Shown: positions 4,872-44,576, numbered from the stretch's first letter. The stretch: DNA of 55,893 nt from a virus (IMGVR_UViG_3300044630_003363:1-55893); one strand, 5' to 3'. Made by a program: numbers and translations. Notes: generated by a model from the sequence alone, not told the origin.

Positions 4872-4904
4872 TATAAATATCAAAAGAAACGAAAGATATT
4901 TATA
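4872..4904. promoter_or_regulatory. Back-to-back divergent putative late promoters (TATTTATA on - at 4872-4879, on + at 4897-4904)
   Basis: Same motif precedes about 15 genes in the window, in the sense orientation. Confidence 0.7.
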
Positions 4905-17142: not shown

Positions 17143-17319
17143 TTAATCTCCGTAGATATCTTTTTTCTTTGGTATTTCTATGGATTTATCTTCTTTACAA
17201 GTTTCATCAATCCACTTCTGAACAATTTTATAAATTTTTAATCCTTTTTTATCGCAATATTCTTTTAACATCTTGTGATGTTTCTCACTAACCTTAATGT
17301 TTTTGGTGGTATTCTCCAT
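17143..17319 (-). CDS. 58-aa ribbon-helix-helix-like DNA-binding protein (not in the ORF track)
   Basis: MENTTKNIKVSEKHHKMLKEYCDKKGLKIYKIVQKWIDETCKEDKSIEIPKKKDIYGD; TATTTATC motif 6 nt upstream. Confidence 0.7.
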   Translation of the reverse strand: MENTTKNIKVSEKHHKMLKEYCDKKGLKIYKIVQKWIDETCKEDKSIEIPKKKDIYGD

Positions 17320-17454: not shown

Positions 17455-20289
17455 ATGGCAAATTCAAATAGAGTATTTGTATCTCCTGGTGTATATACAT
17501 CAGAAAAAGATTTATCATTCGTAGCACAAAGTGTTGGGGTGAGTACATTGGGGTTAGTGGGGGAAACTTTAAGAGGTCCCGCTTTCGAACCAATTTTAAT
17601 AACAGATTTCGATTCATTCAAATTATATTTTGGGGGAACATCACCGGAAAAAGACGGTAATAATAATCCAAAATATGAACTACCTTATGTTGCAAAAGCG
17701 TATCTTCAAGAATCAAATCAACTATTTGTTACAAGAGTTCTTGGATTAACAGGATATAAACCAGTTAAAACATTTGCGATTAAAACAATCGGTGGTGTTG
17801 AGGTTGGAGGATTAAGTGGAACCACAACGGGAACTACAATCCCATCAACAACAGGTATTACAGGTAGTACTTTCTACACTTTCTTATCAGATAAGAAAGC
17901 TTACGACGGAAATACCATTACTGATTATATGGTAACATTCTATAGTGGTTTTACATCAGGTAATACCGGTAATTGGTTTGTTTTGGGTAATGTACCATTT
18001 TCAGGAACATCGGGTTTAACAGGTACTGAAGTCATTTCACCATTAACAGGTTTAAATAACGCAGATAACTATAATTCAAAAGAGTGGTATAATACATTAG
18101 TTAATACGGCTGGTACAGAAGTTTATTCATTCGTATTCGTTTACAATAGTGGTACAAGTCTATTTGATGTAACAAGATATACATATAGTGCTACCACATA
18201 TAGTGATTATGATGAACAAGTTGTTGCATCATTTAGGTCAAGAGGTTCATATGTTGGTCAAACTTTAAATTTAGAAGTTACAGGAAATACTAACTTTAAT
18301 ATTTCGGGTTCGGATTTAGTGGTTAACCCATTATCTGAATTTACAATCAATGTAACGGGAGCAACAAGTGGAGCAAAAACATTTACATGTAGTTTAGATA
18401 CTACATCATCAAAATATGTTACTAAAGTATTGGGTGTTGATGTATTTGATAAATCAAAAGGAGATATTCCGATTTATGTTTATGAATCTTATCCAAAATA
18501 TTTACTACAAGCTTTTCAACAAGGTTACATTAGAGGTATCAGTTTAACTGAAGTTTACAACTCAGAGGGTACTAACTTCTTAACGGAATGGGATACACCG
18601 ATGTCACCAACAGTTGTTTCTGAAGTTAGAGGTGGTAATGTTGCAGATTTATTTGAAATAATTACAATTTCTGACGGTGAAGACGCTAACACACAACTTA
18701 AAATTTCAATTATTAATATTAATGTTGATACATACGAATTCGATATGTTAGTTCGTGAATACTATGATACCGATGATAACATGGTTGTTCTTGAAAAATT
18801 CACAAGATGTTCAATGAATCCAGATGTTCCGGGATATATTGCTAAAAAAGTGGGTACATCTGATGGTGAATATGAATTGAATTCAAAATACATTATGTTG
18901 AATATGTCTAATAACCACCCAACAGATGCATACCCAGCAGGTTTTAAAGGATTTGTAAATAACTCAAACTTTGGTGGAACAACTTTAGGTTCTGTAATGT
19001 ATAAAACTGATTATTATGTGGCTGGTGATACTACAGGTTATAACTCTGACGGTTCACCAATTTCATCTTCGGGAGATAAAATTAGAAAAGTATGTTTAGG
19101 TTTCTCAACTCAAACGGGTTATGATGACGATTTGTTAAAATATAAAGGTAAAGCGGCACTTAATACAACTAAAGGTTTCCACTTATCAACAAACGCATCT
19201 ACAATCACAGGTACAACATATATAACAACACCTTATGATTTAGAAGGTCAACCAGCAGGTAGTGTAATAAGTGATATCAACTATCGTAAATTTACATTAG
19301 CATTATGTGGTGGATTTGATGGTTGGGATATCTACAGAAATATAAGAACTTATGGAGACAATTATATCTTCGGTAAGAAAACTTATGTTTCAGGTAACAC
19401 AACTAATGGTGGTGTGTTTAGTATAGCGGCAGGAAATAGTGATTATTACGCATATGTTAGAGGTATTGATACTTTTGGAAATCCTGAAGCAGTTGATATT
19501 AACATATTTGCAACTCCTGGTATTAACTTCTACGACCACAGTTCACTAACTTCTTATTCAATCGATATGGTTGAACAAGATAGAGCGGATTCACTTTATA
19601 TAATTGGTTCACCAAATTATAGTACGGTTGATGAGGTAGTTGATGCATTAGATGGTGTGGCAATGGATACAAACTATTCAGCCACTTATTTCCCTTGGAT
19701 TCAAGTTAGGGATGTGGATAACGCAACTCAACTTTATATTCCACCAACAGGTGAGGTTGTAAGAAATATAGCATTAACTGATAATGTATCGTTCCCATGG
19801 TTCGCAGTAGCGGGTTATTCAAGAGGTTTAGTGAAATCAATCAAAGCGGTTAAGAAACTAACACTTGATGAAAGAGATGAACTTTACAAAAATAGAATCA
19901 ATCCAATTGCTACTTTCTCTGATACAGGTACAATTATTTGGGGTAATAAAACTCTACAAGTAAGAGAATCTGCACTTGATAGAATAAATGTAAGAAGATT
20001 ATTATTAAGAGCAAGAAAATTAATTTCAGCGGTAGCGGTTAGATTAATATTTGAACAAAATGACGAAGAGGTTCGTAACGAGTTCTTGAGGTTAGTAAAT
20101 CCGATATTGGACGCGATTAAGAGAGAAAGAGGTCTTTATGATTTCCGTGTAACGGTTTCAAGTGACCCAGCTGATATAGATGCAAATACAATGAGAGGTA
20201 AAATATTTATTAAACCTACTCGTTCACTTGAATTTATTGATGTTGAGTTCGTAATAACACCAACAGGAGCTTCATTTGACAATATTTAA
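17455..20289 (+). CDS. Contractile tail sheath protein (gp18-like)
   Basis: FVSPGVYTSEKDLS N-terminus; PWFAVAGYSRG, RINPI, WGNKTL, RINVRRLL, IKPTRSLEFI. Confidence 0.97.
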   Translation: MANSNRVFVSPGVYTSEKDLSFVAQSVGVSTLGLVGETLRGPAFEPILITDFDSFKLYFGGTSPEKDGNNNPKYELPYVAKAYLQESNQLFVTRVLGLTGYKPVKTFAIKTIGGVEVGGLSGTTTGTTIPSTTGITGSTFYTFLSDKKAYDGNTITDYMVTFYSGFTSGNTGNWFVLGNVPFSGTSGLTGTEVISPLTGLNNADNYNSKEWYNTLVNTAGTEVYSFVFVYNSGTSLFDVTRYTYSATTYSDYDEQVVASFRSRGSYVGQTLNLEVTGNTNFNISGSDLVVNPLSEFTINVTGATSGAKTFTCSLDTTSSKYVTKVLGVDVFDKSKGDIPIYVYESYPKYLLQAFQQGYIRGISLTEVYNSEGTNFLTEWDTPMSPTVVSEVRGGNVADLFEIITISDGEDANTQLKISIININVDTYEFDMLVREYYDTDDNMVVLEKFTRCSMNPDVPGYIAKKVGTSDGEYELNSKYIMLNMSNNHPTDAYPAGFKGFVNNSNFGGTTLGSVMYKTDYYVAGDTTGYNSDGSPISSSGDKIRKVCLGFSTQTGYDDDLLKYKGKAALNTTKGFHLSTNASTITGTTYITTPYDLEGQPAGSVISDINYRKFTLALCGGFDGWDIYRNIRTYGDNYIFGKKTYVSGNTTNGGVFSIAAGNSDYYAYVRGIDTFGNPEAVDINIFATPGINFYDHSSLTSYSIDMVEQDRADSLYIIGSPNYSTVDEVVDALDGVAMDTNYSATYFPWIQVRDVDNATQLYIPPTGEVVRNIALTDNVSFPWFAVAGYSRGLVKSIKAVKKLTLDERDELYKNRINPIATFSDTGTIIWGNKTLQVRESALDRINVRRLLLRARKLISAVAVRLIFEQNDEEVRNEFLRLVNPILDAIKRERGLYDFRVTVSSDPADIDANTMRGKIFIKPTRSLEFIDVEFVITPTGASFDNI

Positions 20290-20301
20290 TAAAAAAATAA
20301 A

Positions 20302-20325
20302 TGGGAAGGTGTAAAATCCTTCCCA
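20302..20325 (+). terminator. Hairpin after the sheath gene (terminator or processing stem)
   Basis: TGGGAAGG-N8-CCTTCCCA; A-tract on the 5' side, weak U-tract on +. Confidence 0.6.
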
Positions 20326-20332
20326 ACTTATA

Positions 20333-20348
20333 TGTTTCACGAGAAACA
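20333..20348. promoter_or_regulatory. parS-like site TGTTTCACGAGAAACA
   Basis: 15/16 identity to the palindromic consensus TGTTTCACGTGAAACA; intergenic. Confidence 0.65.
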
Positions 20349-20380
20349 AAAAAAGTATAAAAAATATAAAATTATAATAC

Positions 20381-20490
20381 CCAGTATATATGCTCCAGTA
20401 TACTAGAACTAGTATTTTATTATCTAGTATTTTAATATCTAGTTTTAATAAACTAGTTAAAGAATTTCTAGTACTAGATACTAGTATAGT
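20381..20490. repeat. Array of CTAG/CCAG-TA core repeats with about 15-bp phasing (candidate origin iterons)
   Basis: CTAG at 20403, 20409, 20424, 20439, 20453, 20468, 20474, 20481; palindrome TCTAGTACTAGA at 20467-20478. Confidence 0.75.
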
Positions 20491-20607
20491 GAAAAAATAC
20501 GAAAAATATTTGACATTATCAAGTATTTCGTAAAAATAAATTATTTTTCAATAAGAGTATATTTATAGGTAAGGTAAATAAAAAAAAATTAAAAACAAAA
20601 AATAGAC

Positions 20608-21096
20608 ATGGCAGATTTATTAATGAAAATGCCGGTTCCATACGAACCGAAAAGAGTTAACCGTTTCATACTAAGATTTCCCTCTTCATTGGGTATCAAC
20701 GAATGGTATGTAGCATCAACGGCAAGACCAAGCGCAAAAATCAATTCAGTAGCAATACCGTTCATTAACACATCAACTTATGTTGCTGGTAGATTCGAAT
20801 GGAATGAACTAAGAGTAACATTTAAAGACCCAATTGGACCTTCAGCGTCACAAGCGTTGATGGAATGGTTCCGTTTACACGCGGAGTCAGTAACGGGTCG
20901 TATGGGTTACGCAGCGGGTTATAAGAAAGACATTGAATTAGAAATGTTAGACCCAACGGGAGTTGTGGTTGAAAAATGGATTCTTCAAGGTACATTCTTA
21001 ACTGATTTGAACTTCAACGAACTTGATTATTCGAGAGATGACATTGCAACTATCACAGCGTCTTTACGTATGGATAGATGTATTCAAGTTTACTAA
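20608..21096 (+). CDS. Tail tube protein (gp19-like)
   Basis: EPKRVNRFIL, YVAGRFEW, GYAAGYKKDIELEMLDPTGVVVEKWILQG; follows the sheath. Confidence 0.93.
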   Translation: MADLLMKMPVPYEPKRVNRFILRFPSSLGINEWYVASTARPSAKINSVAIPFINTSTYVAGRFEWNELRVTFKDPIGPSASQALMEWFRLHAESVTGRMGYAAGYKKDIELEMLDPTGVVVEKWILQGTFLTDLNFNELDYSRDDIATITASLRMDRCIQVY

Positions 21097-21153
21097 TTTT
21101 ATTATCAGTATTTTACGTATTTTAATAAAATAAAATTGTCTATTTACAATATT

Positions 21154-21187
21154 AAGGGTCTTCCGTTGGGAGACCTTTACTTTTTTA
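21154..21187 (+). terminator. Rho-independent terminator after the tail tube gene
   Basis: AAGGGTCTTCC-GTT-GGGAGACCTTT followed by a T-run. Confidence 0.8.
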
Positions 21188-35305: not shown

Positions 35306-35512
35306 ATGGATAAGGATAAAATAAATAATAGTTTAAATAACTATTATTCAAAACCAAAAAATGTACAAGCTATTTCAAATGATGGAATGGAAAGACAAGA
35401 ATGTGATATTCAAACAGGTGAATGTTATATTATCAGGTCAAAAGACGGTATCGTAGAAAGAATAAATAAAAAAGTAATTACCGAAGACGGTAGACAACTC
35501 TTACAAGATTAA
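35306..35512 (+). CDS. Small hypothetical late protein
   Basis: ORF behind TATTTATA (35286); ECDIQTGEC motif. Confidence 0.75.
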   Translation: MDKDKINNSLNNYYSKPKNVQAISNDGMERQECDIQTGECYIIRSKDGIVERINKKVITEDGRQLLQD

Positions 35513-44291: not shown

Positions 44292-44493
44292 CGAAAAAAA
44301 TAAAAATAATGATGAAGGGGATGGTCGAAAACTTTCCCCTTCTGATTTTTATATAGAGGACGGAAAATATGTTTTTACTGAGGAATTTCATTTAAAACGA
44401 GGGTTTTGTTGTAATTCGGGGTGTAGACATTGTCCCTATAAAAAAGATTTAGGTGGCTCCCTTAATGGTTCGCGGCCGACCGCAAGCATCTAA
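44278..44493 (+). CDS. Small Cys/His-rich protein (DUF5522-like); start uncertain (GTG 44248 or 44278)
   Basis: FTEEFHLKRGFCCNSGCRHCPY. Confidence 0.7.
   Translation: MKLNNEKNKNNDEGDGRKLSPSDFYIEDGKYVFTEEFHLKRGFCCNSGCRHCPYKKDLGGSLNGSRPTASI
44314..44350 (+). terminator. Terminator-like hairpin after nrdJ, inside the DUF5522-like frame
   Basis: GAAGGGGA-N13-TCCCCTTC then TGATTTTT. Confidence 0.5.
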
Positions 44494-44520
44494 CTTTGAA
44501 AATACAGGGGGCGAATATCA
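44452..44520 (+). ncRNA. Candidate structured RNA element (family not recognised)
   Basis: GC-rich island; GCTCCCT/AGGGGGC outer stem and GCGG-CCGA-CCGC inner hairpin. Confidence 0.35.
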
Positions 44521-44525
44521 GAGAC

Positions 44526-44555
44526 AAATCGAGGACTAAACTCCTCGATTTTTTT
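44526..44555 (+). terminator. Rho-independent terminator ending the replication operon
   Basis: AAATCGAGGA-CTAAAC-TCCTCGATTT plus T-run. Confidence 0.85.
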
Positions 44556-44576
44556 ATTTAATGGTATTTATTAATA

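Follow-up and report, generated by a model that had tools for sequence, protein, structure and literature searches.

Between the tail sheath and the tail tube gene of the virus represented by the IMG/VR contig IMGVR_UViG_3300044630_003363, the 55,893 bp of which (estimated completeness 17%, G+C content 31%) are termed the window throughout, lies a short array of CTAG-centred sites. This array is a real and conserved feature that is present once per genome and is under selection. Judged from its sequence, it is best described as a putative multi-site protein-binding platform that forms part of a composite element together with a parS-type palindrome and the promoter block of the tube gene. It is tentatively put forward here, with a probability of roughly 0.4, that this platform sets the timing or the strength of tail-tube transcription. 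Control of the tube promoter is thereby slightly favoured over an origin of replication of the kind exemplified by oriE of phage T4.

Sheath (17455-20289) and tube (20608-21096) genes are separated by a gap of 318 bp. As had been claimed in a first-pass annotation of the window, this gap holds eight CTAG within 82 bp (20403-20484), which start at positions 20403, 20409, 20424, 20439, 20453, 20468, 20474 and 20481, and five of these follow each other at distances of 15, 15, 14 and 15 bp. Further details given there were likewise recovered, namely two copies of CCAGTATA ahead of the array (20381 and 20395), an A-rich tract and nested palindromes; TCTAGTACTAGA is located at 20467-20478. Read from left to right, the region comprises an A/T-rich tract that separates the array from the parS-like site (20349-20380, read directly; of the TTTTATAA..ATTATA type in relatives), a left cluster (20381-20415) that consists of the two CCAGTATA copies and the CTAG at 20403 and 20409 and matches the conserved left cluster of CYRG sites described below, a series of lineage-specific phased units with one CTAG each at the stated 15, 15, 14 and 15 bp within an A+T spacer (20409-20467), and a right cluster (20468-20484), whose CTAG at 20468, 20474 and 20481 are spaced by 6 and 7 bp just as in the conserved right cluster. 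When the gap was shuffled 5000 times with preservation of its dinucleotides, a mean of 0.82 and a maximum of five CTAG resulted, and eight were reached in none of the shuffles (0/5000). Two hundred shuffles of the whole window yielded at most five CTAG per 82 bp, and the Poisson probability of at least eight CTAG in 82 bp is 3.5e-15 when the rate is taken outside the gap. The tetranucleotide is rare elsewhere, as originally stated: 48 copies are present in the window versus 84 expected (Markov), and any other stretch of 150 bp contains three at most. The inverted repeat that had been proposed to follow the array fared less well. Both of its arms are present (TACGAAA at 20498 and TTTCGTA at 20526) but the pair is not kept in relatives, in which TACGAAA alone is conserved.

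Comparison with relatives was based on 99 distinct modules out of 162 loci (sheath-, tube- and motif-derived, pooled). Array-bearing relatives with long sequences are G001 (288 kb, 92% complete, loci L125-L126), G002 (310 kb, complete, loci L104-L119) and G010 (86% complete), while G006 and G007 are array-less contigs and G008 carries a decayed array with two remaining sites. Conservation in relatives, one of the checks named in the first-pass annotation, turned out clearly positive: the array is kept between sheath and tube, with at least five CYRG sites in 90 of the 99 modules and two or fewer in only four. Fifteen of 18 sheath-linked loci exhibit 4-11 CTAG at the matching position; among the other three, one contig stops short of the region and two distant ones (65% sheath identity) have CCAG and CTGG at corresponding positions. 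Distant relatives bear CCAG, CTGG or CCGG in place of CTAG, with positions unchanged. The conserved unit is thus not CTAG itself but the degenerate palindrome CYRG, mostly in the form CYAGTAT. The half-flanks of array sites read TAT in 401 of 1410 cases and have C as the outer base in just 1.6%, and sites are found in both orientations.

Arrays comprise 7-14 CYRG sites in two clusters. In the commonest layout, counted from the T of TACGAAA, sites at -100, -92, -86 and -77 are followed by an A+T spacer of about 45 bp and by sites at -31, -25 and -18. The window retains a left trio (-103, -95, -89) and a right trio (-30, -24, -17), and its spacer is filled with CTAG at -74, -59 and -45, which are the source of the 15-bp phasing. 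Most other lineages possess a plain A+T spacer of about 45 bp and no phased units, close relatives differ in copy number from 6 to 11 CTAG, and independent expansions of the same kind occur in loci L015-L017 and L095. By this comparison, the 15-bp phasing is considered a lineage-specific elaboration of a conserved form that consists of a bipartite arrangement of 4 + 3 CYRG sites. Third-codon positions of the tube gene are identical to only 55-69% between the window and G001, G002 and G006, so that neutral sequence should be scrambled at such distances and the retained CYRG sites must be regarded as being under selection. The array is also the single densest cluster of CTAG, CYRG or CYAGTA in both G001 and G002. 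Nine of the 146 CTAG of G001 and seven of the 176 CTAG of G002 fall into one stretch of 150 bp, with two to three in the next densest.

The array is firmly connected with the elements that precede the tube gene. The composite element runs in the order terminator, parS palindrome, array, TACGAAA/TTGACA block, TATTTATA box and tube gene. Its most conserved part (20489-20522, plus strand) is an A-tract followed by TACGAAAAA and then TTGACAttaTCAA, which is near-invariant in an alignment of 21 diverse modules and has the consensus GTAAAAAAC-TACGAAAAA-N-TTGAYAWWRWCAA. This A-tract/TACGAAA/TTGACA-N3-TCAA block is situated 18 bp 3' of the array and occurs in one copy per contig (80 fetched loci). The TTGACA contained in it is scored as a -35-like hexamer, and a -10-like hexamer, by eye poorly conserved, is frequent 15-17 bp after it. 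Bacteroidota, the group to which the host may belong, do not use sigma-70-type TTGACA promoters. The promoter-like TATTTATA box of the tube gene (20560-20567, plus strand) is located 53-73 bp past TACGAAA in 94 of the 99 modules, and in 91 of them the last CYRG site is found between -12 and -21 relative to TACGAAA. The array therefore occupies a fixed position upstream of the promoter of the neighbouring gene, as is expected of an operator array. A terminator-like hairpin after the sheath gene (GGGAAGG-N8-CCTTCCC, 20302-20325, plus strand) was found in a terminator scan; in relatives, its stems differ yet still pair, e.g. GGTCCC..GGGACC or GGGGG..CCCCC. A second terminator-like hairpin (21153-21179, plus strand), a 12-pair stem followed by a T run, comes after the tube gene. 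With terminators on both sides, the tube gene forms a single-gene unit.

It is this fixed geometry relative to the promoter-proximal block, in combination with the dispensability of the array, that leads us to favour a role in tube transcription; the rigid spacing between array and block is no less compatible with transcription control than with an origin. Loci L099 and L139/L143 have no array and retain the TACGAAA/TTGAYA block and the promoter, and in L099 TTAG is present at the position expected for CTAG. An array-less lineage with 68 kb available did not contain a relocated copy of the array in that stretch. In L097/L098 a gene has been inserted between sheath and module, and the module remains with the tube gene, while L075 and L091 possess a second TACGAAA/TGAC plus TATTTATA unit. 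Owing to the palindromic, degenerate nature of CYRG, the sites are most likely each recognized by a protein with two-fold symmetry, such as a symmetric dimer. On the two clusters, several copies of this protein would come together, with bending or looping of the soft A+T spacer in between, and the assembled platform would then control the TATTTATA promoter of the single-gene tube unit.

Presence of the array is accompanied by a shortage of its motif in the rest of the genome. Tetranucleotide statistics, also suggested by the first-pass annotation, establish that CYRG is depleted in array-bearing genomes and not in G006 and G007. Ratios of observed to expected counts (Markov) for all four CYRG tetramers range from 0.57 to 0.64 in the window, from 0.37 to 0.55 in G001 and from 0.60 to 0.74 in G002, as compared to 0.84-1.20 in G006 and 0.90-1.18 in G007; G008 gives a mixed picture. 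Outside the gap, the ratio is 0.12-0.91 in 53 array-bearing loci and 0.98 in the array-less L099. When the tetramers of G001 are ranked by depletion, the CYRG family comes directly after GATC. The CYRG sites that remain in the genomes are enriched in the context CYRG-C, which is avoided in arrays. Differences in CYRG depletion could stem from different host restriction systems. Other palindromes have been purged as well, apparently through avoidance of restriction sites in individual lineages: the window (about 156 expected) and G001 (795 expected) have no GATC at all, with 741 copies in G002, ACGT is found 12 times in the window versus 66 expected, AGCT reaches 0 of 20 in G007 and CATG 1 of 36 in G008.

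Several lines of evidence speak against assigning the array to the control of tube transcription. Uniqueness of the site, extreme instability of the DNA around it and an adjoining parS-like palindrome would be anticipated just as much for an origin. A shortage of a 4-bp motif throughout the genome is less typical of a transcription factor than of an enzyme that targets single sites, depletion is strongest with the smallest arrays (Spearman +0.40, 54 loci), such that there is no simple dose relation, and the contrast with array-less genomes is drawn from just two independent lineages. In L095, where the TACGAAA block is missing, a homing-endonuclease-like gene lies between the tube promoter and an array that is still intact, which means that the array is able to persist apart from the promoter. 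Metatranscriptome contigs are unable to place transcript starts, and the contig start at 20610 that several of them share is an artefact as positions 20567-20609 were masked. Finally, an array-binding protein was not identified, and the syntenic 48 kb contain no gene that is present in G001 and G002 yet missing in G006. The 58-aa open reading frame (ORF) at 17143-17319 (minus strand), which is transcribed away from the sheath gene and kept at this position across the family (53-100% identity), looks like a ribbon-helix-helix (RHH)-type DNA binder from its strand-helix-helix pattern and did not match anything in the family search. As a binder of the array it was rejected because it also occurs in the array-less L099 (26 residues aligned, truncated locus). 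G002 encodes further candidate DNA binders, i.e. an OmpR-type winged-helix protein, a Ros/MucR-like protein and an Hc1 histone-like protein, none of which is linked to the array.

The palindrome upstream of the array, TGTTTCACGAGAAACA (20333-20348, 16 bp), differs by one mismatch from the chromosomal parS consensus. This consensus is usually given as TGTTNCACGTGAAACA, with TGTTCCACGTGGAACG in Myxococcus and GTTCCAC and GTTTCAC as half-sites (PMC7022226). Among the 99 modules the number of mismatches to parS is zero in six, one in 20, two in 34 and more than two in 39; exact TGTTCCACGTGGAACA is present in relatives. The centre of the palindrome is located 38-42 bp upstream of the first CYRG site in 49 of 60 modules, and G001 and G002 contain one perfect parS-like palindrome each. 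The exact 17-mer of the relatives is found in bacteria of many phyla, often clustered, and these include Chitinophaga, Flavobacteriales and Daejeonella from the Bacteroidota. One whole clade has arrays and no palindrome. The first-pass annotation had combined this site with the array into an ori/par module. The likeness to parS stands, while the par module is not backed by partition proteins: complete or near-complete relatives yielded no Pfam-recognizable ParA, ParB or tubulin, in that ParB_N (PF02195) was above the cut-off in none of five records and CbiA-type ParA (PF01656) and tubulin in none of four records each. Positive controls for the ParB_N and CbiA searches matched in 11 and 14 of 14 genomes; the control for ParM failed, and the ParM result carries no weight.

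A possible, if less probable, function of the element is that of an origin of the T4 kind, with a promoter and a melting element accompanied by iteron-like sites and with the parS-like site marking the origin region. According to PMC3016281, a promoter and an A+T-rich element suffice for T4 origins, which are located near strand switches, and iterons occur in oriE, where their role is unproven. The proposal of an unwinding element within the region agrees with the calculated stability of the DNA. By nearest-neighbour energies (SantaLucia 1998 values) no other duplex of 200-300 bp in the window or in G001 is less stable than the gap between sheath and tube. For G002 this applies at 60 and 200 bp and nearly so at 100 and 300 bp, four other regions being less stable at 300 bp. 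The same gap is also the least stable one in the array-less or decayed contigs G006-G008, and while this instability fits an unwinding element it may merely reflect the longest truly non-coding stretch. Repeated sites next to an easily melted A+T-rich element, the hallmark of iteron origins, are thus present, and they occur in one copy per genome and as two clusters around an A+T spacer with copy numbers that shift among close relatives. The phage possesses replication genes of T4 type (family B polymerase, gp32-like, RecA/UvsX-like and DnaB-like proteins), and a strand switch between the RHH-like gene (minus) and the sheath gene (plus) 3 kb upstream heads a run of plus-strand genes that extends over about 180 kb. 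Survival of the array after its separation from the tube promoter in L095 would be understandable for an origin, and since individual T4 origins are dispensable, losses of the array would be tolerable. On the other hand, cumulative GC skew, named in the first-pass annotation as a means of detecting an origin, passes the array without inflection in the window as well as in G001 and G002. It tracks gene strand instead, and the nearest turning region is found 3-5 kb upstream, at the strand switch. Nor was a Rep-, DnaA- or O-type initiator detected among 404 ORFs of G002 (60-1000 aa, Pfam E<=1e-5), a weak argument given that most ORFs match nothing and that seven ORFs of more than 1000 aa as well as ORFs across the joins of the 20-kb pieces were left out of the scan. 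The suggestion of iteron-like initiator sites therefore holds insofar as a conserved, once-per-genome array of the protein-binding-site type is concerned and is not backed by a recognizable initiator or a skew signal. A position so rigidly tied to the promoter-proximal block of tube is not demanded of an origin, and at least two lineages have lost the array, in one of which no relocated copy is present in the available 68 kb. A further scenario, which we regard as unlikely, is a centromere-like function in which the parS-like site loads ParB of the host, the phage lacking a recognizable one of its own, and the CYRG array recruits another factor by which the ParB complex is shaped, blocked or exploited, be it for upkeep of phage DNA in a carrier state, for its organization or for long-range control of the adjacent promoter. 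The single mismatch in the window, the exact match in relatives to a published consensus (PMC7022226), the clustering of the 17-mer in bacterial genomes including those of Bacteroidota, a plausible host group, the constant spacing of about 40 bp from the array and the one perfect copy per genome agree with it. Only 26 of the 99 modules have one mismatch or none, however, 39 deviate at more than two positions, the palindrome is missing from one array-bearing clade, ParB_N, CbiA-type ParA and tubulin were not found in the searched records, and a lytic T4-like phage has no evident need for partition, binding of host ParB being putative. It is also conceivable, though distinctly unlikely, that both components form a control knot, where parS captures host ParB and a CYRG-specific phage factor, maybe a nickase, acts once per genome at an element that is origin and fixed late enhancer at the same time. 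A nick serves as an enhancer of late transcription in T4. Nicked or opened A+T DNA would provide an entry for the replication and sliding-clamp machinery, and the fixed enhancer would head the plus-strand block of about 180 kb that begins with structural genes. A nickase would also explain why CYRG has been purged from the rest of the genome.

Depletion of the motif touches upon packaging as well. The first-pass annotation had considered terminase binding or a packaging site, and it is indeed imaginable that a terminase subunit, a nuclease or a nickase cuts once per genome at the array and that its motif was purged elsewhere. The site is unique, CYRG is depleted in array-bearing genomes alone, the residual sites favour the CYRG-C context avoided by arrays, and the 4 + 3 layout around a bendable spacer resembles pac of phage P1. 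Even so, such a function appears improbable. A pac site used for headful packaging is expected at the small-terminase gene, with genome ends starting from it. The gene for the large terminase (Terminase_6N) is far away from the array: in G002 the two lie at 10.6 and 59.3 kb and in G001 at 23.9 and 67.8 kb, i.e. at distances of 48 and 44 kb, respectively. Portal and capsid genes of T4 type suggest, by inference from T4, headful packaging that has no unique start. G002 closes on itself with an overlap of 99 bp, as would an assembly that is circular or circularly permuted, some lineages no longer possess the array, and depletion is partial (0.37-0.74), whereas GATC is purged fully in the window and G001. 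Contigs do not visibly terminate at the region more often than elsewhere: five of 80 tube-bearing ones end up to 400 bp upstream, about the level expected from short contigs. A non-functional or selfish repeat is very improbable, be it a slippage-prone A+T-rich minisatellite, a decayed miniature inverted-repeat element or a restriction decoy. The number of units does vary among close relatives, inverted CCCAGTAT...ATACTGGG at the array borders are found in many lineages, and some lineages have lost the array and kept the tube promoter. Against this stand the retention of site cores and positions in spite of near-saturated synonymous sites as well as the single copy at a constant place, which is unlike a mobile element. 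The decoy array in particular, entertained in the first-pass annotation, does not explain why sites are conserved, and clustered targets would attract a restriction enzyme rather than distract it. Least probable, and rejected, is a gene for a small structured RNA between sheath terminator and tube promoter, for which the conserved non-coding stretch with its short palindromes and the coverage of 20217-20566 in one of four RNA libraries could be adduced. In Rfam the sole match is a patAB leader (20291-20337, minus strand; E 4.2) with 17.8 bits versus a gathering score of 92, and RNAalifold predicted for the 21 diverse modules a structure of -2.04 kcal/mol with three pairs, all within the parS-like palindrome. 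A stem between the outermost inverted sites was ruled out since CCAG...CTAG combinations are common; these sites do not co-vary in a stem-like manner, and sites exist in both orientations. The element was also considered as a site for a tyrosine recombinase and rejected as such, because Phage_integrase was detected in just one of five records (G002) and is absent from the array-bearing G001 and G010.

Resemblance to known systems is only partial in each case. In PMC3016281, oriE, oriF and oriG are described for a T4-type phage with evenly spaced short direct repeats among late structural genes and with a promoter beside very A+T-rich DNA near a switch of the transcribed strand, all of which applies to the element studied here. 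In contrast to oriE, our array is made up of CYRG palindromes in both orientations and two clusters, has a period of 15 bp, in some lineages, instead of 12 nt, is situated between sheath and tube and lacks a known partner of the RepEA/RepEB type. Chromosomal parS is similar with regard to the 16-bp palindrome with its one mismatch and to the exact TGTTCCACGTGGAACA of the relatives, which is clustered in bacterial chromosomes. The phage site differs from it as a single copy with no recognizable ParA or ParB that is degenerate in many lineages and absent from one array-bearing clade.

Phage P1 pac consists of 4 + 3 hexamers and P1 parS of heptamer and hexamer boxes, which in both cases flank a bendable spacer, and both sites are unique and about 100-160 bp in size. 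The array has a different motif, an IHF-type site was not identified, neither a terminase nor a par gene is near, and unlike in P1 pac there is no Dam-type GATC, this tetranucleotide being absent from the whole window. The arrays of R1 parC, pBtoxis tubC and the omega heptads are iteron centromeres that double as operator and assembly platform. Here, too, many short sites are arranged in two blocks beside a promoter, and a gene for an RHH-like protein is located 3 kb away; in contrast, a tubulin-like or ParA-type motor was not found, and arrays and the RHH-like ORF do not consistently occur together. Tandem operators of TrpR and MetJ contain CTAG-centred palindromes (ACTAGT) with a flexible central TA step that are bound co-operatively at a spacing of 8 bp. 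The array deviates from these operators by spacings of 6-9 and 15 bp, by CYRG degeneracy and by many more sites, and a homologous repressor was not identified.

The genes on either side of the element are clearly assigned. The upstream gene (17455-20289, plus strand) encodes a tail sheath protein of 944 aa (PHROG phrog_23, E 2.5e-58) and the downstream gene (20608-21096, plus strand) a tail tube protein of 162 aa (phrog_4542, E 3.8e-23). In metatranscriptome contigs the 3' end of the sheath gene and the tube gene are covered in all four runs; the stretch 20393-20575 is uncovered in three of them and covered at lower depth (20217-20566) in one. Sense-oriented TATTTATA is found not more than 50 nt ahead of nine ORF starts of the window, and its total count of 14 corresponds to the chance level. 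These boxes are located at 4872, 4897, 7344, 17411, 20560, 22113, 24069, 35286 and 47287, 3-50 nt from the ORF starts. Several are merely 3-8 nt away from ATG, which suggests very short or absent leaders. One of them precedes a 68-aa ORF (35306-35512, plus strand) that is kept in G001, G002 and G006 with 59-72% identity and is probably a real gene missed by the list of ORFs of 90 aa. Identity to relatives amounts to 91-95% for the tube protein versus 64-75% for the sheath and 62-74% for the product of the gene after tube; as third-codon identity is merely 55-69%, this high conservation of the tube reflects constraint on the protein and not recent transfer. In relatives, the gap between sheath and tube is a hotspot for insertions. 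The gene in L095 (508-2169, minus strand) encodes a protein of 553 aa that has repeated Cys/His modules, carries a nuclease-like tail and is homing-endonuclease-like by eye, and that in L097 (1040-1738, minus strand) a 232-aa protein with an L,D-transpeptidase-like motif, also recognized by eye.

The phage from which the window derives is a T4-like jumbo phage of lakes and belongs to an uncultured family with genomes of about 300 kb. Tail genes of T4 type (sheath, tube, gp25-like, baseplate J-like and T4 baseplate protein) are present in the window together with replication genes for a family B polymerase, gp32-like, RecA/UvsX-like and DnaB-like proteins and a 5'-3' exonuclease; tRNA genes were not found across the whole window. 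The tube protein matched viral contigs in public collections in more than 600 cases. Identity is 88-100% in the best 80 matches, some contigs are as long as 288-316 kb, and the DNA and RNA runs that contain the window sequence are labelled as lake or freshwater metagenomes. A DNA search against isolated phages gave no match. Their nearest representatives reach only 36-41% tube-protein identity, and in these isolates the gap between sheath and tube is 45-94 bp long and therefore devoid of the module. Aquatic 'moraphages' reported in 2025 (PMC12619734) may belong to the same lineage; promoters and cis-elements were not found to be discussed in the accessible text of that report. A host from the Bacteroidota is plausible because a Shine-Dalgarno-like motif is rare (upstream of one of 28 window ORFs) and because a relative of 248 kb was found in a bin labelled Flavobacteriaceae.

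Some additional properties of the window and its relatives are recorded here. At 44292-44576 the window contains a gap of 285 bp that is unusually G+C-rich, unlike other intergenic regions, and in which hairpin-like repeats and a short open frame rich in Cys are found. In G001 an open frame of giant size, with at least 5454 codons (about 108,000-122,000), is made up of repeats rich in Thr, Pro and Asn; the DNA there contains 38% C and 6% G and causes a large local dip in GC skew. Among the gene products of G002 are a sigma-70-family factor with regions 2 and 4, proteins resembling Cas3, Cas6 and TnpB, a ribosomal S21 domain and a tyrosine recombinase that is not common to its relatives. The same genome has genes for four DNA methyltransferases, two of them Dam-like, one of N6/N4 and one of C5 type, and its portal gene contains an intein.

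The family studied here is very common in lakes and has no cultured member above 41% tube-protein identity. For this family, the region constitutes a conserved cis-element of about 280 bp with a defined motif (CYRG, usually CYAGTAT), a parS of host type and a promoter block. The link between presence of the array and genome-wide purging of CYRG suggests a site-specific factor that could be found by genome comparison. If recruitment of host ParB were true, it would represent an unusual case of a lytic phage borrowing the chromosome-segregation machinery of its host, for which no report was found in the open-access literature searched. The element may bear on how replication starts or on when tail genes are expressed in giant T4-like phages of Bacteroidota-type hosts.

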